Positions 463-63,175 of a stretch of DNA of 64,000 nt are shown piece by piece. This DNA is from Okamejei kenojei. Its lineage: Eukaryota. The notes beneath the pieces are model-generated. The model worked only from the letters and a program-made list of their open reading frames with translations. It was not told the DNA's origin and did no database searches. The DNA is taken from assembly GCA_035221665.1 (NCBI GenBank), contig CM069135.1, forward strand, positions 54,994,001-55,058,000, given 5' to 3'. Each line of letters starts with the position of its first letter. The stretch's first letter is position 1. The position numbers were made by a program, and so were the translations under genes.

Positions 463-675
463 GGTCATAAGGTCATAAGGAATAGGAGCACAATTGGTTA
501 ATTCGGCCCATCAAGTCTACTCCGCCATTCAATCATGGTTGATCTATCTCTCCCTCTCAACCCCATTCTAAGTTGTCCAACAACTTTAGGCTGTGCACGC
601 CACACGAAAGAAGAAGAAGAACCCCATTCTCCTGCCTTCTCCCCATAACCTCATACACCTGTACTAATCAAGAAG
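463..675 (-). mobile_element. CR1 LINE 3' end fragment
   Basis: Reverse complement of the CR1 3' UTR seen elsewhere (gatcagccatgattgaatggcgg...). Interrupted by a 50-bp insertion at 570-619. Confidence 0.75.
570..619 (+). mobile_element. 5'-truncated copy of the HDV-ribozyme/(AAG)n short retroposon
   Basis: aagttgtccaacaactttaggctgtgcacgccacacg followed by (aag)n. 11-bp TSD aaccccattct at 559-569 and 620-630. Matches the 3' end of the copies at 28963 and 36880. Confidence 0.85.
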
Positions 676-1364: not shown

Positions 1365-3392
1365 CCCTATTGATGACCTCTTCTCCCATCTCCAACTACC
1401 TGCTTAGACCATTTTATTTTAAACTGTCGGTGTGACATCAACCGCCTCAACATCTCCACTCCCCTTTCTCACTCTACCCTCTCCCCCCCTGAACGTACAG
1501 CCCTCCACTCACTCTGCAACAACCCAGACTTGGTGATCAAACCTGCAACTGATCTCTACAAGTCTGAGGGCCGGTGCCAATTCTCAGACACCTCCTCCAA
1601 CTTATCCTTGGACCATGACCCCACAGACGAGCACCAGGCCATTATATCAAACACTATCACTGGCTTTATCACTTCAAGCTCCCTACCCTCCCAAGCCTCC
1701 AACCTCATCGTTCCCCAAGCCCCGCACGGCCCGATTTTACTTTTTCCACAAAATCCACAAACCTGACTGTACTGGCAGACCCATTGTTTCTGCTTGTTCG
1801 TGTCCCACCAAACATATTTCCACACACCTCGACTCCAGCCTATCCCCCTTGGTTAAATCCCTCCCTACCTATGTCCAAGACACCTCACACTCTCTTCGTC
1901 TCCTCCATGACTTCCGTTTTCTAGGCCCCCATTCCCTCATCTTCACCATGGATGTCCAGTTACTCTACACCTCCATCCCCCACCAGGAGGGTCTTAAAGC
2001 CCTCCGTTTCTTCCTCGACCACAGAACCAACCAATCCCCATCTAGCGATACTCTCCTCTGCCTAGTGGAGCTGGTCCTTACCCTCAACAACTTTTTGTTT
2101 GACTCCTCCTATTTCCTCCAAATCCAAGGCGTAGCTATGGACATGCGCATGTGGCCCCTGCTATGTCTGCCTCTTCGTAGGGTACATCGAACAATCCTTG
2201 TTCGAGACGTACAATGGCCCTATCCCCGAACTCTACCTCCGCTACATCGATGACTGTATTGGTGCTACCTCCTGCACCCACACACAACTCACTGACTTCA
2301 TCTATTTCACCACTAGCTTCCATCTGGCACTCAAATTCACCTGGACCATCCCTGCTTCCCTCCCTGCTACCTGTAAGGACTATCTCCCCTACTCCCAATT
2401 CCTCTGTCTACACCGCATCTGCACCCAGGATGAGATGTTCCAAACCAGGGCATCGGAGATGTCCTCGTTCTTTAGGGAACGGGGGTTCCTCTCTTCGACT
2501 ATAGATGAGGCTCTCACCAGGGTCTCTTCTATATCCCGTAACTCTGCTCTCACTCCCCATCACCCCACTAGTAACAAGGGGAGAGTCCCCCTTGTCCTCG
2601 CCTTCCACCCTACCAACCATCACATACAACAGATAATTCTCTGACATTTTCGCCACCTCCAATGGGATCCCCCCCACTGGCCACATCTTCCCATCTCCTC
2701 CCCTTTTGGCTTTCTGCAGAGACCGCTCCCTCCGTAACTCCCTGGTCAATTAATTCCTTCCCACCCCAACCACCCCCTGCCCTGGTATTTTCACTTGCAA
2801 CCGCAGGACATGCTACACTTGTCGCTTTACCTGCCCCCTTGACTCCATCCAAGGACCTAAGCAGTCTTTCCAGGTGCTGCAGAGGTTCACCTGCACCTCC
2901 TCCAACCTCATCTATTGCATCCACTGCTCTAGGTGTCAGCTGCTCTACATCGGTGAGACCATGCATGGGCTTGGCGATCACTTCGCCCAACACCTTCGCT
3001 CAGTCCGCAATAACCAACCTGATCTCCCGGTGGCTCAGCACTTCAACTTCCCCTCCCATTCTGAATCCAACTTTTCTGTCCTGGGCCTCCACCATGGCCA
3101 GAGTGAGTCACACAGCAAATTGGAGCAGCAGCAATTCATGTATGCTTGGGTAGTTTACACCCCAGCGGCATGAACATTGACTTCTCCAATTTCAGGTAGT
3201 CCTTGATTTCTCCCTCTTTCCCCTCTCCTTCCCAGCTCTCCCACAGCCCACTGTCTCCACATCTTCCTTTCTTTTTTCAGCCCCCACCACCCCCACATCA
3301 GTCTGAAGAAGGATCTCCACCCGAAACGTCACCTATTCCGTCGCTCCATAAATGTTGCCTCACCCGCTGAGTTTCTCCAGCATTTTTGTCCA
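1365..3392 (+). mobile_element. Penelope-like retroelement (RT + GIY-YIG endonuclease, frameshifted) with 3' pLTR/hammerhead motif
   Basis: ORFs 1615-2253 (KIHKPDCTGRPIVS, FTMDVQLLYTSIPH), 2198-2644 (YLRYIDD) and 2874-3173 (FTCTSSNLIYCIHCSRCQLLYIGET). The terminal repeat carries ctgaagaa...gaaacgtc at about 3303-3330. Confidence 0.9.
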
Positions 3393-4568: not shown

Positions 4569-4647
4569 ATGGCTCTCATAGTGCATCTGAAAACCGTCAC
4601 CGATCTCCGGGGGAAAGGAGACCGCATCGCAAAAGTAACCTTTCGAG
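4569..4647 (+). CDS. otof: Otoferlin coding exon 1 (start of C2A domain)
   Basis: ATG at 4569 translates [26 protein letters not shown](G), closely matching the vertebrate otoferlin N-terminus (human [27 protein letters not shown], from memory). 79 coding nt, then a GT donor (G|gtaaac) at 4648, phase 1. Confidence 0.95.
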
Positions 4648-16181: not shown

Positions 16182-16240
16182 GGCTCTCATTTTATACAAG
16201 AGTTCTGGAAAACTGTGAAGATGAAGCACAATTTGATGAG
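16182..16240 (+). CDS. otof: Otoferlin coding exon 2
   Basis: Polypyrimidine tract and AG at 16180-16181, then a 59-nt exon (G)[19 protein letters not shown] and donor GAG|gtaaaa at 16241. Phase joins exon 1 in frame and the peptide matches otoferlin [20 protein letters not shown]. Confidence 0.95.
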
Positions 16241-23880: not shown

Positions 23881-26693
23881 AAACATAGAAAATAAGTGCA
23901 GGAGGGGGCCATTTGGCCCTTCGAGCCAGCACCGCCATTCATTGTGATCATGGCTGATCGTCCGCTATCAATAACCGGTGCCTACCTTCTCCCCATATCC
24001 CTTGACTCCACTAGCCCCTAGAGCTCTATCTTACTCTCCCATAAATCCGTCCAGTAACTTGGCCTCCACTGCCCTCTGTGGCAGGGAATTCCATAAATTC
24101 ACAACTCTCTGGGTGAAAACGTTTTTTCTCACCTAACCTAACCTAACCCTATTGAGATAAAAATCTACCCCCTTGTTTTTGCCACCAAAGTGGATAACCT
24201 CACATTTATCTATATTATACTGCATCTGCCCACTCACTCAACCTGTCCAGGTCACCCTGCAACTTCCTAACATCCTCTTCACAGTTCACACTGCCACCCA
24301 GCTTTGTGTCATCCGCAAACTTGCTAGTGTTGCTCCTAATTCCCTCTTCCAAATTATTAATATATATGGTAAACAGTAGTGGCCCCAACACCGAGCCTTG
24401 CGGCACTCCACTCGCCACTGCCTGCCATTCTGAAAAGGACCCGTTCACTCCTACTCTTTGCTTCCGGTCTGCCAACCAATTTTCTATCCATATCAACACC
24501 CTAACCCCAATACTATCTGCTCTAATTTTAGTCACCAGTCTTCCGTGTGGGACACTATCAAAGGTTTTCTGAAAGTCTAGATACACTACATCCACTGGCA
24601 CCCCTTCATCTGTTTTACTTGTCACATCCTCAAAAAATTGAAGATTAGTCAAGCATGATTTCCCTTTCATAAATCCATGTTGACTTGGACTAATCCTTTT
24701 ACTGCAATCCAAATGCTCCATTATTACCTCTTAATAATTGACTCCAGCATCTTTCCCACCACCGGTCAGACTAACTGCTCTGTAATTCCCTGTTTTCACT
24801 CTCGCTCCTTTCTTGAAAAGTGGGATAACATTAACTATCCTCCAATCCACAGGAACTGATCCTGAATCTGTTGAACATTGGAAAATTATCACCAATGCGT
24901 CCACTATTTCTAGAACCACCTCCCTGAGGACCCTGGGATGCAGACCATCAGGCCCAGGGGATTTATCATCCTTCAGTACCATTAGCCTACCCAATACTAT
25001 TTCTCGCCTAATGAAAATTTATTTCAGTTCCTCTACCCCCTTAGATCCTCTGTCCTCCAGTACATCTGGGAGACTGTTTGTGTCTTCTTTAGTGAAGACA
25101 GATCCGAAGTACCTATTCAACTCTTCTGCAATTTCCTTTTTGCCCATAATAATTTCACCCGTGTCAACCTTCAAGGGACCCACATTTGCCTTTGCTACTC
25201 TTCTCCCCTTAACATATCTAAAGAAGCTTTTACTGTCCTTCTTTATATTCCTGGCCAGCTTCCCTTCGTACTTCATCTTTTCAGCCCGTGTTGCCCGTTT
25301 TGTTTCCTTCTGTTGTCCTATGACAATCCTCTGGCTTCCAGCTACTCTTTGCTGTGTTATACATCTTTTCTTTTAGTTTTATTCTATCCCTAACTTCTCG
25401 TGTCAGCCACGGTTGCCTCCTACTCCCCTTAGAATCTTTCTTCCTTTTTGGAATGAAATGATCCTGCGTCTTCCGGATTATGCCCAGAAATTTCTGCCAT
25501 TGCTGTTCCACCGTCATTCCTGCTAGGATCCCGTTCCAGTCTACCTTGGCCAGCTCCCCTCTCATGCCTTCATAGTCCCCTTTATTCAACTGCATCACTG
25601 ACACTTCCGATTTAATCTTCTCCTTCTCAAATTGCAGATTAAAACTAATCATATTATGATGACTACCTCCAAGCGGTTCCTTTACCTCGAGTTCTCTTAT
25701 GCTATCTGGTTCATTGGACAACACTAAACCCAGAATTGCCTTTTCTCTGGTCGGCTCCATTACAAGTTGCTCTAAGAATCCATCTCGGAGGCATTCTACA
25801 AACTCCCTTTCTTGGGGTCCTGAACCAACCTGATTGTCCAGTCCACCTGCATATTGAAATCCCCCATCACCACAGTGGCATTACCTTTGTTACATGCCAG
25901 TTTTAACTCGCAGCAGCAACTTACATCCTACATCCGGGCTACTATTTGGGGGTCTGTAAATAACACGAATTAGTGCCTTCTTGCCTTTACAATTCCTCAA
26001 CTCAATCCACAGTGACTCTACCTCATCAGTCCCTATGTCTTCCCTCGCAAGGGACTGAATTCCATCCCTCATAGCAGAGCTACTCCCCCTCCTCTGCCCA
26101 CCTGCCTGTCCTTTCTATAGGATGTATAAACCTGAATGTTAAGTTCCTCCTGCAGCCACGTCTCGGTAATCCCCACAATGTCATATCTACCAACCTCTAA
26201 CTGAGCCTCAAGCTCATCCACTTTACTTCTTATACTTTGCGCATTCATATACAATACTTTTAATTCTTTACGCATCTCACCTTTCACATCTATACCTATT
26301 ACACTTGGCCATACTCTCCTATTCCTTCGTGAGCTTCCTTTCCCGTTAATTCTGGGGTCATTAACCATCCCTTTACTCTCTTTCCCTTTAACTCCGTCCT
26401 CGACTATCCCATTTGCTACCCCACCCCCCTCATTCAGTTAAAAACCACCCGTGTAGCAGTGGCAAACCTGCCTGCCAGAATGCTGGTCCCCCACCTGTTA
26501 AGATGCAATCCGTCCCTTTTGTACAGTTCCCCCTTACTCCAAAACAGATCCCAGTGATCTAAGAATCTAATTCCCTGCCCCCTGCACCAGTTCCTCAGCC
26601 ACACATTCAGGTCCCGTATCTCCCTGTTCCTGCTCTCGCCAGCACGAGGAACTGGAAGCAAACTGGAGATAACAACCGTGGAGGTCCTGCTCT
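23881..26693 (-). mobile_element. Long CR1 LINE: ORF1 SGNH esterase end, APE endonuclease, RT, 3' UTR; internally deleted and frameshifted
   Basis: 26434-26844 RFLDHWDLFW...DGLHLN (SGNH-type); 26069-26368 YMNAQSIRSK/GITETW/GGGVALL; 25890-26072 YRPPNS; 24215-24721 QHGFMKGKSCLTN, GVPQGSVLGPLLF, KFADDTKL. The 3' UTR is at 23881-24130. Confidence 0.93.
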
Positions 26694-28612: not shown

Positions 28613-28962
28613 TGGTCTCTTGTACTGATAACCAACAGGCTAAAATAGACTGCTATATTTACTGGAGTTAACTTGTCTGGATGATGACCTAACAAGTGCA
28701 ATGGAATATTTTCATCCCTCCAGTGCTGAAGTTATTAGTTCACGAGGGCTGGGGAAAGAGTAACTGCTGCTGTTGGCTGCACATGAATCATTTGCAGTAA
28801 TACCAGAGAACTGGTCCTTTCAGAAATAACACCAAGGAAACAATACCATCGAGCACATTCATAGAAAGCTCTGCTCAAGTGATTTTGTGTTGCTGCATCA
28901 ATTTTTGAAACCACTGTGCTCCTTGTCAGAGTAGAAAAAGATTAATGTGTGCTTTTGAGACT

Positions 28963-29153
28963 TCTTCTTCTTTCGTGTGGTGTGCACAGCCTAAAGTTTT
29001 TGGACAACTTGTTCTATTTAATATTTCCTCACCCAGACTCGATACCACAGCATCCTCACCCTTGTTCTATTTAATCTTCCGTTTGTGCATGTCGAGTTGA
29101 TTGCATTAGTCGAAACAAGGCGGACCACGTGATGGTTGCAATCTTCCACTCCC
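28963..29153 (-). mobile_element. HDV-ribozyme-headed short retroposon, copy 1
   Basis: The minus strand reads ribozyme fold, 3' stem-loop, then (AAG)n tail. TSD ttgagact at 28955-28962 and 29154-29161. Confidence 0.85.
29099..29152 (-). ncRNA. Minimal HDV-like ribozyme (predicted); catalytic C retained
   Basis: P1 GGAGTGG, AA, P2 GATTGCA, P3 ACC, L3 ATCACGT, P3' GGT, P1' CCGCCTT, G, TTTCGA, CTAA, P2' TGCAATC. There is one A-C mismatch in P1. Confidence 0.7.
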
Positions 29154-29416
29154 TTGAGACTGTTGTATCTGTAGGATAGGATGTTAAATGGTACTAACTT
29201 GAAATGTTGTGATTTATATTTATGCAGCCTTTTACATGTAAAGTTAAAAAAAACTTTCATTGATGCTGGAATGGAGTTTCTATCCTCATGTATATGCACA
29301 TCCGGAACAAGAATCGTTTTGTTAAGAAATTTCTATAGCACCGTTTTCTTTTAAAATATGCTCCTTTATCAAAAAGCCCTTACACTTTTGAATGTGGAAA
29401 AAATTTCAACAAGCTG

Positions 29417-36798: not shown

Positions 36799-36879
36799 TC
36801 ACAATCACAATCTCACCATCACAATCACAATAATACTTTATTAGCCAACATACGAGGAATTTCATTTGCCAAGTCGGTC

Positions 36880-37022
36880 TTCTTCTTCTTCTTGCGTATG
36901 GCATCAACAACCTAAAGTTGTAGGACAACTTGTTCTATTTGATCTTATTTGATTGCGCACACCAGGTTGATTGCATTCATCGAAACAGGGCGGACCATGT
37001 GAAGGTTGCAATCTCCCACCCC
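36880..37022 (-). mobile_element. HDV-ribozyme-headed short retroposon, copy 2 (143 bp)
   Basis: The 5' end coincides with ribozyme G1 and the element ends in an (AAG)n tail. Imperfect 12-bp TSD gccaagtcggtc (36868-36879) and gccaagccagtc (37023-37034). Confidence 0.88.
36969..37022 (-). ncRNA. Minimal HDV-like ribozyme (predicted); catalytic position is T
   Basis: P1 GGGGTGG, GA, P2 GATTGCA, P3 ACC, L3 TTCACAT, P3' GGT, P1' CCGCCCT (G1-U wobble), G, TTTCGA, TGAA, P2' TGCAATC. All helices pair. Confidence 0.75.
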
Positions 37023-37634
37023 GCCAAGCCAGTCATACAAATAAAAAGCAACTGAACACACAAAATACATGTTAACATAAACATCCACCACAGTGACTCC
37101 TCCACATTCCTCACCGTGATGGAAGGCGAAAACAAAGTTCAAATCACTTCTCTTCTCTCCCGCGGTCGGGGGCTTCGAGCTCTCCGTTGATGGGACGATC
37201 TTGACTCCCTTAGCCGGCGGCGTTTTGGCCCTCTGCATCGGGGCAATCACTCCCACATCGAGGGGGATGTCAGCTCCCCCTGCGCTGGGTGATCGAACCC
37301 CGCGTCGGGGCTGGACAAACCTCTGAGACGTTGGAGCTCCCGACCAGCCTCTCCCGAGACTGTGAGCTCTCGATGTAAAGTCTGCAGGTCGCGGTTGGAG
37401 TGATCCAAGGCAAAGGATCGACTCCAATGTTAAGTCCAAGCCCCGCGGTGGGGCTCAATGTCAGTCCGAGGAGGCATCCAGCTCCATCGATGGTAGGCCG
37501 CAGAATGACCGGAGATGCGACCCAGAAAACAATCGCATCACCGGCAAGGTAAGAAACTGAAAATAATTTCCCCCGACCCCCTCCCCCTCCCCCCACATTA
37601 AAAAAAAAAACTGGAGAACATTTACACAAACTTT

Positions 37635-40150
37635 ATAACCATATAACAATTACAGCACGGAGACAGGCCCTCTCGGCCCTTCCAGTCCGTGCCGACCATT
37701 TGTTTTCCCCTAGTCCCATCTACCTGCACTCAGACCATACCCCTCCATTCCCTTCACGTCCATATACCTATCCACTTTACTTTTAAATGTTAAAATCGAT
37801 CCTGCCTCCACCACCTCTGCTGGAAGCTCATTCCACACAGCCACCACCCTCTGAGTAAAGAGGTTCCCCCTCATGTTACCCCTAAACTTCTGTCCCTTAA
37901 TTCTCATGTCATGCCCTCTTGTTTGAATCTTCCCTACCCTCAATGGGAAAAGCTTATCCACGTCAACTCTGTCTATCCCTTTCATCATTTTAAAGACCTC
38001 AATCAAGTCACCCCTTAACCTTCTGCGCTCCAAAGAATAAAGACCTAACTTGTTCAACCTTTCTCTGTAACATAGTTGCTGGAACCCTGGCAACATTCTA
38101 GTAAATCTCCTCTGTACTCTCTCTATTTTGTTGACATCCTTCCTATAACTAGGCGACCAAAATTGTACACCATACTCCAGAATTGGTCTTACCAATGCCT
38201 TGTACAATTTTAACATTACTTCCCTACTCCTATATTCAATGCTCTGATTTATAAAGGCCAGCACACCAAAGGCTTTCTTTACCACCCTATCTACATGCGA
38301 TTCCACCTTCAGGGAACTATGCACAGTTATTCCTATGTTCCACAGCATTCCTCAATTCCCTACCATTTACCATGTACGTCCTATTTTGATTTGTCCTGCC
38401 AAGATGTAGCACTTCACACTTATCAGCATTAAATTCCATCTGCCATCTTTCAGCCCACTTTTCCAAATGGCCCAAATCTCTCTGTAGACTTTGAGAATCT
38501 ACTTCATTATCCACAATACCACCTATCTTAGTATCATCTGCATACTTACTTATCCAATTTTCCACCCCATCATCCAGATCATTGATGTACATGACAAACA
38601 ACAGTGGACCCAACACAGATCCCTGAGGCACCCCACTGGTCACCGGCTTCCAACCTGACAAACAGCCATCCACCATTACTCTCTGACATCTCCCATTCAG
38701 CCACTGTTGAATCCATCTTGCTACTCCGCCATTAACACCCAAAGATTGAACCTTCTGAACCAACCTTCCATGGGGAACCTTGTCAAAGGCCTTACTGAAA
38801 TCCATATAGACAACATCCACTGCTTTACCCTCATCAATTTCCCTAGTTACCGCTTCAAAAAAAATTCAAGAAGGTTTGTCAAACATGACCTTCCAGGCAC
38901 AAATCCATGTTGACTGTTCCTGATCAGACCCTGTTTATCCAGATGCTTATATATATTATCTCTAAGTATCCTTTCCATTAATTTGCCCACCACTGACGTC
39001 AAACTAATAGGTCTATAATTGCTAGGTTTATTCTTTGAACCCTTTTTAAACAATGGAACAACATGCGCAGTACGCCAATCCTCCGGCACTATTCCCGTTT
39101 CTAATGACATTTGAAATATTTCTGTCATAGCTCCTGCTATTTCTACACTAACTTCCCTCAATGTCCTAGGGAATATCCTGTCAGGACCTGGAGACTTATC
39201 CACCTTTATATTTTTCAAAAGTGTCAGTACTTCCTCCTCTTTGAATCTCATAGTTTCCATAGCTACTCTACTTTTTTCCCTTACCTCACAGAGTTCAATA
39301 TCCTTCTCCTTGGTGAATACCGAAGAAAAGAATTGTTCAATATCTCCCCCATCTCTTTTGGCTCTGCAGATAGCTGTCCATTCTGGTTCTCTAATGGTCC
39401 AATTTTATCCCTCGTTATCCTTTTGCTATTAATATAGCTGTAGAAACCCTTTGGATTTACTTTCACCTTTCTTGCCAGAGCAACCTCATATCTTCTTTTA
39501 GCCTTCCTAATTTCTTTCTTAAGATTCTTTTTACATTCTTTATACTCCTCTAGCACCTCATTTACTCCATGCCTCCTATAATTATTGTAGATATCTCTCT
39601 TTTTTCGAAACAAGTGTCTAATTTCCCTTGAAAACCATGGCTCTTTCCAATTTTTACTATTTCCTTTCAACCTAACAGGGACATAAAGATTCTGTACTCT
39701 TACAATTTCCCCTTTAAATGTCCTCCATTTCTCTTCTACATCCTTCCCATGAAACAAAGTGTCCCAATTCACTCCTTTAAAATCCTCACGCATTCCCTCA
39801 AAGTTAGCCTTTCTCCAATCAAAAATCTCCACTCTAGGTCTTGTTCTGACTCGCTCCATAATTATATTGAAACTAATGGTATTGTGATCACTGGTCCCGA
39901 AGTGCTCACCAACGCATACCTCCGTCACCTGTCCTGCCTCATTTCCTAACAGGAGGTCCAGCACTGCCCCTTCTCTGGTCGGTACCTCTATGTACTGCTG
40001 CAAAAAACTATCCTGCACACATTTTACAAACTCCAAACCATCCAGCCCATTTACAGAATGTGTTTCCCAGTCTATTTTTGGGAAATTGAAATCTCCCACA
40101 ATCACTACCTTGTGCTTACTACTAATATCTGCTATCTCCTTACATATTTG
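37635..40150 (-). mobile_element. Young 5'-truncated CR1 LINE (APE end, RT, 3' UTR)
   Basis: ORFs 39281-40153 (VGDFNFP, GTSDHN), 38847-39260 (KSPGPD, NYRPISLTS), 38317-38820 (GVPQGSVLGP, KYADDTK) and 37710-38348. Only a few frameshifts; ataaccatata tail. Confidence 0.95.
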
Positions 40151-40478
40151 CACTTTTAAAATGCACTAAACATAAAAAGAAGACGAAAAAACAGACAGAC
40201 TGTTGGCGGTGCTGCCAATCGTGCGGCACCCCTGGTGGTGTCATGACATGTTTAGATAGGGTAAGTGAAGGGAACTTGGTCAACAGACGGTTGAAGGGGT
40301 GAATGATGATTTCAAATTTGGTGTAATAGGCATGAGATAGTTATGGAGAAATTTCAATAAATGGTAGACTATGGAAATTGAAGCAAAAACAGAAAATGCT
40401 GGAACAAAGCAATTCTGGTGCGGGCTCACAAACCTGAAACATTGGCAGTTTCTCTTTCCATAGTTGCTGCTTGACATT

Positions 40479-47000: not shown

Positions 47001-47089
47001 TCAGCCCAATCAAATTCAATAACAACAAGTTACATTTGAAGAGCTCCTTTCAGACAATGAAACATTCCAGGATACTTGCTTTACCATGT

Positions 47090-47312
47090 GTTAACGAAGA
47101 AACTGCAGATGCTGGAGAATCGAGGGTTACACAAAATGCTGGAGAAACTCAGCGGGTGCAGCAGCATCTAAGGAGCGAAGGAGATAGGCGACGTTTCGGG
47201 TCGAGACCCTTCTTCAGTCTGAAGAAGGGTCTCGACCCGAAACGTCGCCTATCTCCTTCGCTCCTTAGATGCTGCTGCACCCGCTGAGTTTCTCCAGCAT
47301 TTTGTGTAACCC
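47090..47312. mobile_element. Penelope-derived hammerhead element containing a perfect 189-bp palindrome
   Basis: Arms 47124-47217 and 47219-47312 are exact reverse complements. 17-bp TSD tacttgctttaccatgt at 47073-47089 and 47313-47329. Confidence 0.95.
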
Positions 47313-47709
47313 TACTTGCTTTACCATGTCTATTTGTGTATTTAATAAATATTCAGCTGCACTTAAATGCCTGTAAAATAATATTTAAAAAGATCTTAAA
47401 GTTTCCAGTCTCCTTTTACTCCAGTCAGCAATTATGTTGACAGTTTAAAATTAACATGTATGTCCCCCTATACATGAAATTAAATATTAAATAACTTGCA
47501 AATAACTAAACATTTATTGCAATTTAGTATTTTCCATTGTGAATTAAGGTTTAAATACCATGGGTTAGACTGTTGGGTTCTGGAGTTTCATTCACTTTAC
47601 CTTGGAAATGGGATAAATTTCATCGAGTGCACCTTTTATGGAATATTTTCAGAAACATATAGCACAGAAACAGATATTTGGCCCACGGTGTTCATGCAAC
47701 TACCAAGCA

Positions 47710-61823: not shown

Positions 61824-63175
61824 AACTCCAATACATCCGGTATGCTTGCAGTATGATCAAATATATCTGACTGTAAACAAACATCTCCCATTTCTTAATA
61901 TGAGACACATATAGTTTCTTAGTGCTATCTCTCCAAGCTGCAGTTATGGCATCCATGGTCCTATTCGACAGTCCAAAGCCTTGGAATGGTCTGGTCAGAA
62001 CCTGCAGATCAACAAATTAATATGATCATGTAACGGATGACTTTCTTCTTTTACTGGATGCACCAGCAATTACTGCAGTTGGGGACAGTCATGAATGGCT
62101 GAGTCATCATTCTGAGCACCAATGGGAACCATGGCTCTGTAGTCCAGTCTGGAACCACCAAAATGCCTGAGGCGGAGTCCTGCTCTATTTTGGTGAGACA
62201 CTGCCTAATCAGGCAGAATGGAGAAAGCATAAAAGAAGTACGTCCCCAATGTAGCAAGAATGCATCCACCGCTACTGCTCCTGGACCCGGTTTCCATGAA
62301 ATATATTTAGGCAATTGGTGATTTACCCTGGATGCAACAGATCAATATCTGGCAACCCATAGCGGCTGACAATCATTTTAAAACTTCAGGATTTATTCAT
62401 CCATTCTATGTTGTCGTTGAACTTTCGTGACCTGTTTGCTGCACCACATTGTGTTTACTTGCTAGGTAGATAGCTGAGACCCAGATGTTTCTGGAAATAC
62501 ACCAGTGCCACATGAGGTTAGCCAGATTATCACATGATACTGATATTACTGCCATGGGATTGATATATGGCACAGCTGTGGTATTATCAATCTGGAGTTG
62601 AACATATAAATTATTCATTGTTAAACAATAAACTTTTAATCCATAGAATGCACCCAGCAATTCTAAGTAATTTATACCATGCCTGTGCAGGATCAAATCC
62701 TCTTGCACACTCCATCTACCACCACAGCTAGACTCGCTGTCCATAGCTCCCCATCCGGTAGCACTCACATATGTCTGTAAAAGCACTGAAGGTTGCTGAA
62801 CCAAAATGTTTTTGATAGTTTGTAATTGAGCTATGGCTCTGGTTGGTAACTGCATAGGTCTATCAAAATGACCTGCATGTTCTTTAAGTGCTAGTTCGCT
62901 AGCTTGTTGCAGACTTGGATAGTGCAGTGGTACAAACTGCACTGCAGGGAAAGCTGCCACCAATTTACCAATAACAGTAGCTACTTCCCGGATGGAGGGA
63001 TATTGTTTTTCAGCGAGACTAGTAGAGAGCTCTCTGATCTCCACAGCCTTGGCTGTAGGCAAAGTCACTGACATAGCAACTGAATCATGACAAATCCCAA
63101 ATGAACAATTTTTTAGGATGGCTCTAACTTGGATTTGGTTGGATGGACAAGGAACCCTACCCTTTCAAACAGGTG

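Follow-up and report, generated by a model that had tools for sequence, protein, structure and literature searches.

The window, the whole stretch of 64,000 nucleotides analysed here, comes from Okamejei kenojei (GenBank assembly GCA_035221665.1, contig CM069135.1, positions 54,994,001 to 55,058,000 of the forward strand) and carries otof on the + strand. Exon 1, which starts at 4569, matches the PDB otoferlin entry 3l9b (E 1e-8), and exons 3 and 4 lie outside the window, exon 3 about 15 kb past its end. Two full copies of a short retroposon are located in intron 2 on the − strand, antisense to the gene as the preliminary description of this DNA had claimed, and a 5′-truncated copy lies upstream of the start codon. 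The features of the gene and of the copies are as follows.

570..621, + strand, 5′-truncated copy that lacks the ribozyme, located upstream of the start codon of otof
4569..4647, + strand, otof coding exon 1
16182..16240, + strand, otof coding exon 2, ends approximate
28963..29153, − strand, whole insertion of 191 nt: a 138-nt mini-retroposon (including an extra 5′ G) plus a 53-nt secondary insertion
28955..28962, target-site duplication ttgagact (as read on the + strand) on the element's 3′ side, empty site in three other organisms
29154..29161, target-site duplication on the element's 5′ side, from the same empty-site comparison
29153, − strand, one extra G between the duplication and G1
28963..29007, − strand, 3′ portion, comprising a short hairpin and the (GAA)n tail; its final bases resemble the 3′ ends of this genome's Vingi-like LINEs
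36878..37022, − strand, other full copy, an older variant with the catalytic C changed to U and with G25A, antisense in otof intron 2

The copy at 28963..29153 had been described as an independent insertion flanked by ttgagact, and this was borne out: the 8-nt duplication is exact, and 199 nt (191 + 8) are absent from the contigs that join the two flanks in three other organisms, with 28957 joined to 29157 in X10 and 28954 to 29154 in both X5 and X9. Flanking sequence in these three organisms is about 4% diverged from that of the window, so that the element was inserted recently or in one lineage only. The empty-site comparison covers this copy, the relatives' contigs ending before the second full copy (36878..37022). 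As a separate observation, the + strand of 28963-28990, where the element's tail is read antisense, presents a pyrimidine run followed by CAG and could serve as a 3′ splice site on the otof strand.

The copy at 28963..29153 is an ordinary decayed member of an abundant retroposon family, differing from an intact family copy at 8 of 137 positions, 3 of them within the ribozyme (G3A, U20A and C35U). A 25-nt core pattern had 7,673 exact matches in the genome (3,797 + 3,876) and a 3′ motif had 8,147 (4,052 + 4,095), with 0 matches for either reversed control. Because no more than 9 of the 29 copies found through the 3′ motif contain the core pattern exactly, the true copy number is probably several times greater than 7,673. 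Family copies are about 135-145 nt long, end in (GAA)n and are flanked by duplications mostly of 10-13 nt as scored. Their 5′ end is sharply defined: among 78 distinct loci, 16 of them without a scorable duplication, the duplication ended within 1 nt of G1 in 55 of the 62 scorable copies, and of the 29 copies for which the 3′ motif was the sole selection criterion, 28 extend to G1. The target-site duplication, the simple-repeat tail and the lack of a tRNA head are traits of bipartite LINEs, and from its sequence the family appears to be a bipartite non-autonomous LINE with an HDV-like head, whose P4-less fold would be unusual for a vertebrate. A literature search returned no report on this retroposon family, which is possibly catalogued in Repbase or Dfam.

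The family's 5′ head is a predicted minimal HDV-like ribozyme, presumably self-cleaving, and in the copy at 28963..29153 its parts are placed as follows.

29099..29152, − strand, predicted 54-nt minimal P4-less HDV-like fold, with G1 at 29152
29152-29146 with 29123-29117, − strand, P1
29143-29137 with 29105-29099, − strand, P2
29136-29134 with 29126-29124, − strand, P3
29133-29127, − strand, L3, AUCACGU
C22 (29131) with G37 (29116), − strand, P1.1, a single pair
29109-29106, − strand, J4/2, CUAA

The letters of the fold given previously (the extra G at 29153, the C at 29109, J4/2 as CUAA, L3 as AUCACGU and the A3·C34 mismatch) were all confirmed, and the consensus drawn up earlier from two copies agreed with the majority letters of 29 independently picked copies. 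In a nested double pseudoknot of P1, P1.1, P2 and P3, the family forms 18 of 18 pairs. A search with RF00622 led to a sister mini family, about 165 nt long, whose head also measures 54 nt and is identical to the family head at 30 positions. Despite this divergence, 17 of the 18 pairs are kept, 10 of them through two-sided changes, and L3, G37, the catalytic C and the following AA are unchanged (L102, L105); pairing conservation of this degree was reached by 0 of 100,000 shuffles. Pairs were counted by position in a script, the MAFFT alignment of the two families being unreliable. P4 is absent from both mini families, which have six bases between G37 and the catalytic C, and position 1 of the sister family is usually U, not G. 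Compensatory changes between the two P4-less families constitute the best evidence that the fold is likely to have been under selection. Copies of the sister family were observed at L102-L105, L107, L109, L021, L324, L345, L355 and L367, with a further one (L120) lying some 1.4 kb before the window starts.

General searches for the fold gave little. Rfam returned no match for the copy at 28963..29153 and no family reached its threshold; the intact copy scored 16 bits against RF02682 (gathering threshold 44; E 0.88), in a full-length match. Nested folding of the element gave no signal (z ~0), as expected of a pseudoknot. In the 3′-motif sample of 29 copies, 28 have U20, 26 have G25 and 10 retain a fully intact ribozyme. 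U29C, which breaks the first P3 pair, occurs in 7 of 29 full-length copies in one sample and in 2 of 100 in another. Loci with this change (L061, L063, L064, L069, L071, L073, L078, L368 and L002) often carry further changes nearby, and in L078 the pair is restored by A17G.

The recurrence of full-length copies with the P3-breaking U29C would also be expected if an internal promoter at +1 set the 5′ end and the fold, inherited from a parent LINE, were dispensable or slow, like trypanosome Pr77. The absence of P4 fits such an account, and the extra 5′ G of the copy at 28963..29153 could be a copied cap; in L1, a copied cap can leave an extra 5′ G. Pr77 is itself both promoter and ribozyme, according to the available text of PMC3383444. 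Against this stand the ten two-sided pair changes around an unchanged catalytic core in two P4-less families, and P4-less ribozymes are active in vitro, as stated in the accessible part of PMC10879173. In addition, the base before G1 in 110 distinct copies is enriched for T (0.41 against a background of 0.31) more than for G (0.25 against 0.19), with A at 15% (background 28%). This skew could reflect untemplated addition or a cleavage preference. On balance we regard the internal promoter as unlikely and retain cleavage just before G1 as the probable source of the 5′ end.

Within the copy at 28963..29153, four positions describe the state of the ribozyme.

29150, − strand, G3A, giving the A3·C34 mismatch in P1, found in 3 of 100 copies
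29133, − strand, U20A, by which the U of the U20·G25 active-site pair is lost; two samples of the family have U here in 28 of 29 and in 98 of 100 copies
29118, − strand, C35U, turning G2-C35 into a G·U wobble
29109, − strand, catalytic C (C44; C75 by HDV numbering), kept here and in all 29 copies that were chosen through the 3′ motif

By its stress on the retained catalytic C, the preliminary description hinted at activity of this copy. This reading was not upheld, since the C is present in all 29 copies chosen by their 3′ end regardless of the ribozyme and is therefore uninformative, while U20 is lost and P1 is weak. Neither C35U nor the role of U20, the first base of L3, as a core position had been noted before, and the same is true of the 53 nt of excess length. 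The copy forms 17 of the 18 pairs, the broken one being A3·C34, and keeps the G1·U36 wobble. Its P1 and P3 together amount to −2.4 kcal/mol, compared with −12.4 for the family; the predicted pairing of P1 is 0.08 here, whereas five intact copies have values of 0.6-0.99. At the metal site, U20 is paired with G25 (PMC13635239, in the text available), and U23A of the antigenomic HDV ribozyme, the equivalent of U20A, is inactive as far as the accessible portion of PMC3386971 describes it.

From the modelled fold and these core changes, the copy is probably inactive or nearly so. That it still cleaves at a useful rate is hardly to be expected: G1·U36, P2, P3, P1.1, G25 and the catalytic C are all intact, but U20A removes an active-site base whose loss inactivates the HDV counterpart (PMC3386971, same portion), two P1 pairs are weakened, P1 is unformed in the predicted fold, and the copy lies antisense to otof with no known transcript. 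Repair of P1 alone is likewise predicted not to rescue it, and the proposed cleavage assay after P1 repair would consequently mislead as a refutation. A3 was considered as an inherited subfamily mark, being present in 9 of the 30 best matches to this copy; these were selected by likeness, and the share in the wider sample is only 3 of 100, so this idea was dropped. In the other full copy (36878..37022), both the catalytic C and G25 are lost.

Concerning the enzyme that would mobilise the family, several related LINE families in the genome have a reverse transcriptase, a C-terminal Cys/His motif and ends like those of the element (a similar motif followed by (GAA)n). We take these LINEs to be Vingi from their C-terminal motifs; the sole Pfam match of a 776-aa piece was RVT_1. 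One LINE family is headed by RF00622-positive folds, followed by the ORF, and the 3′ 73 nt of the sister family match the LINE end in L209 at 92%. Heads scoring 35-67 bits (up to 66.8) on RF00622 were seen at L081-L101, L106, L108 and L110, and a LINE ORF follows in L081, L084, L086 and L106. By analogy, a Vingi-type LINE would be the mobilising partner. The assignment is one of analogy because none of the fetched LINEs bears either end of this family: BLAST of the intact copy against 30 + 40 LINE C-terminal loci, 35 CPEB3-hit loci and 20 longer stretches returned only separate mini copies, and of the 51 places where the 3′ end follows a different upstream sequence, the 30 fetched were 5′-truncated or internally deleted copies with no LINE ORF.

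The lack of a parent among about 70 LINE 3′ ends, the 20 longer stretches and 30 of the 51 unusual 3′-motif loci would equally suit an RTE-clade LINE or an extinct element, rather than a Vingi element now in the genome, and RTE elements make bipartite derivatives too (PMC5786205, available text). We consider such a partner improbable, because this family has its 54-nt architecture and L3 in common with the sister family, which agrees at its 3′ end with that of a Vingi-like LINE, and the terminal motif is shared with LINE families; a Vingi-type LINE thus remains our preferred candidate. A separate observation concerns the copy at 570..621, which together with loci L257 and L264 forms a set of three 5′-truncated copies with nearly equal start points, all inserted into a CR1-like 3′ repeat at one and the same position; the shared site suggests that the mobilising enzyme prefers certain targets or microhomology.

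The 53 nt by which the copy at 28963..29153 exceeds the family length comprise a 39-nt insert and a 14-nt duplication, arranged as follows.

29061..29074, − strand, first copy of the 14-nt internal duplication, with the hot-spot junction between 29061 and 29060
29022..29060, − strand, 39-nt insert, in the orientation of most hot-spot insertions
29008..29021, − strand, second copy of the 14-nt internal duplication, carrying this copy's minority T

A 26-nt portion of the insert is identical to part of the 5′ ORF region of an element that we take to be Penelope-like. The end of this identical portion recurs in the first 9-10 nt of the insert, as slippage during copying would leave it. The possibility that the insert is unique sequence, which a DNA search matching only itself had raised, was rejected, because a pattern search with its 25-mer gave 292 genome matches; in 7 of 12 fetched source loci the match lies about 195 nt from the Penelope-like terminal repeat that also appears in most hot-spot insertions. 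Three partial Penelope-like sequences aligned with the insert no better than shuffles did, which is explained by the lack of the 5′ ORF region in those three.

The same site in the body of the element is interrupted at 43 places in the genome, recognised by GG where the family continues TT. Among the 30 places fetched, two of which are one locus, 26 run into a Penelope-like terminal repeat (23 in one orientation and 3 in the other); the remaining four are the 28963..29153 copy itself, one place with the repeat further on, one with a purine-rich insert and one point variant. In 22 of the 30, the interruption is accompanied by a duplication of 9-18 nt when one mismatch is allowed. As a control, the Penelope-like end was allowed at 31 distances after the ribozyme, and 22 of 25 junctions fell at a single site (p ~3e-30). 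Tandem and inverted ends also occur among the Penelope-like insertions. Since the Penelope-like element was also found inserted at unrelated sequences, the site is a hot spot and not a strict target. The purine-rich insert at the junction, in L136 at 1500-1800, is unexplained.

One or a few composite source copies, amplified afterwards, might produce the same picture, given that most inserts start with the same few bases and that two pairs are of equal length (397 nt and 99 nt). The insert and duplication together, however, range from 53 to more than 1,000 nt, the insertions occur in both orientations and in both body variants with differing duplication lengths, and in the 28963..29153 copy both repeats bear its own minority T. 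Amplification of composites is therefore very improbable, and repeated Penelope-like insertion is the reading we adopt. The bases before the hot-spot junction resemble those before the Penelope-like element's own repeat end. The Drosophila Penelope endonuclease requires its own tail sequence for recognition, whereas a lizard element primes without homology, as given in the available text of PMC11167929. Together, the likeness of the junction flank and the Drosophila tail recognition point to mimicry of a recognition site, with a Penelope endonuclease as the likely cause of the hot spot. A literature search found no report of a precise Penelope-like target site inside another retroposon.

By eye, the Penelope-like source contains what we take to be GIY-YIG-like and hammerhead-like motifs, and one long insert ends in a presumed GIY-YIG-like ORF. 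Pfam gave no GIY-YIG match for this ORF and a weak match to RVT_1 (E 0.038).

It had been proposed, from the two copies in otof, that antisense orientation would spare the pre-mRNA from cleavage. Orientation was examined in 1 Mb (920 kb between Laminin G matches in five spans, and 80 kb further into otof), with genes placed, and the spans inferred, from clusters of same-strand Laminin G exon matches. New intronic copies of the family were 10 antisense and 3 sense (p=0.09), and the sister ribozyme family in the same introns gave 4 antisense and 0 sense. Pooled, the two families stand at 14:3 antisense to sense (p=0.013; Fisher test against pooled controls, p=0.007), or 16:3 with the two window copies added. 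Four control queries in the same DNA, named here on our own assumption as CR1-like, HE1-like SINE and Penelope-like, showed no bias in any case (antisense:sense, CR1-like 3′ end 134:152, HE1-like SINE 102:90, Penelope-like end 172:182, CR1-like RT 58:76). The antisense idea thus gained modest independent support from the 10:3 and 14:3 ratios and the unbiased controls, but with p=0.09 for the family alone it is supported rather than established. The first 800 kb contributed 10:1 and the last 200 kb 0:2 to the total of 10:3, and 8 of the 13 new copies (5:3) lie in one gene; few genes were sampled.

As to the related expectation, that intact and mutated intronic copies differ in orientation, intactness does not separate the orientations in the 1 Mb. 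Three of the 10 antisense copies are intact or have one break, compared with 0 of 3 sense copies, and damaged cores were found in 7 of 10 antisense and in 3 of 3 sense copies. Two antisense copies lack the 5′ end and were thus never able to cut, and the copy at locus L283 has a 3-nt insertion in L3. On the sense strand of the element, neither a poly(A) signal nor a splice donor was seen that might explain purging in a different way. Fast intronic ribozymes reduce splicing (Fong 2009, as cited in the available text of PMC10919898), and selection against intronic cleavage would account for the antisense excess. A literature search returned no report of a ribozyme-linked orientation bias of transposable elements in introns.

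The excess may instead arise at the insertion step, if Vingi-type machinery favours one strand in transcribed genes, or be a small-sample effect. We rate this as the less probable account, though one of some weight. Both ribozyme-less Vingi-like LINE fragments in the sample and both 5′-truncated mini copies are antisense, the family alone reaches p=0.09, and the last 200 kb ran 0:2. Set against these points, four other retroelement queries in the same DNA were unbiased, all three sense copies have a damaged core, and the Vingi-like control, counted with protein and short-end queries, consists of two fragments only. Selection against intronic cleavage therefore remains the reading that we favour.

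R2 SIDEs are reportedly the non-autonomous counterparts within the R2 clade. Among bipartite non-autonomous LINEs of the RTE, Ingi, Vingi and R2 clades, the available text of Kojima 2018 (PMC5786205) describes elements that share with this family two LINE ends only, the lack of a tRNA head, a target-site duplication and a microsatellite tail; unlike them, this family had no parent among the LINEs fetched. NARTc, RIME and SIDER of trypanosomatids (L1Tc/ingi clade, Pr77) are likewise short non-coding LINE derivatives, and their first bases form an HDV-like ribozyme that cuts just before +1, with many copies degenerate (PMC3383444 and PMC4035085, in the accessible portions). Here the fold is predicted and, in contrast to those elements, the host is a vertebrate, the head has 54 nt without P4, the element measures about 140 nt and the tail is (GAA)n.

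Minimal HDV-like and theta ribozymes share the absence of P4, the nested double pseudoknot and the catalytic C. They were described from metagenomes and gut phages, beside tRNAs, whereas here the fold heads a vertebrate retroposon with thousands of copies; the search reported in PMC10879173, as far as its available text extends, found no minimal HDV-like ribozymes in its eukaryotic set. The CPEB3 ribozyme (RF00622; PMC10919898, available text) has the same single-pair type of P1.1, and LINE heads of this genome that share the family's L3 score up to 66.8 bits on RF00622. CPEB3 lies sense in an intron and tunes splicing, whereas the 28963..29153 copy is antisense, lacks P4 and has no RF00622 match. 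With Penelope-like elements, the insertions seen here share variable-length duplications, tandem or inverted ends and a moderate target preference, and a Penelope-like endonuclease can recognise the element's own tail; the preferences described are for microsatellites, AT-rich DNA, telomeres and 28S rDNA, in contrast to the present site inside another retroposon (PMC8557442 and PMC11167929, parts available). What is new is the antisense excess, along with the Penelope hot spot.

A life cycle can be proposed on these grounds. A source copy would be read within a longer transcript, and its ribozyme would cut just before G1 to free a unit-length RNA, whose 3′ end a Vingi-type LINE protein would bind and copy into DNA, leaving a short duplication. 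An intact copy lying sense in an intron would cut the pre-mRNA and tend to be purged; surviving intronic copies would be mostly antisense and could then decay freely, as the 28963..29153 copy may have done. The middle of the element, resembling the sequence beside the Penelope-like element's own end, would be a likely preferred nicking or priming site, and this copy would later have received a short Penelope-like insertion at that repeatedly struck position. Taken together, this explanation (a decayed, likely inactive copy, the proposed life cycle, antisense survival and the Penelope hot spot) seems to us probably right, with appreciable room for error. We are more hesitant about the stronger proposal that tens of thousands of P4-less ribozymes are active enough in vivo to be purged from sense introns, and that the element is a sequence-specific Penelope-like landing pad by mimicking its end, and would put it at somewhat below even chances. 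If it were true, a genome-wide footprint of intronic self-cleavage and an endonuclease target rule would be revealed.

By itself, the single copy at 28963..29153 matters little. The family, on the other hand, offers thousands of natural variants of a 54-nt predicted ribozyme fold of a kind so far known from metagenomes and phages. An antisense excess that held genome-wide would measure the cost of intronic self-cleaving RNA, now studied mainly in CPEB3, and the hot spot is a natural, precisely defined site for Penelope-type insertion, a process whose choice of target is little understood.

Further repeats were observed in the window. A broken Penelope-like ORF lies upstream of otof at 1537-3173 (+), and an inverted pair of terminal repeats of the Penelope-like element at 47086-47350. 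Intron 2 of otof contains CR1-like LINE remnants at 37270-40165 (−) and 24215-25880 (−), the former with a 95% identical inverted partner from 61539. A 252-aa open frame at 62406-63164 (−) shows a likeness, by eye, to what we take to be the RNase H region of a DIRS-type element.
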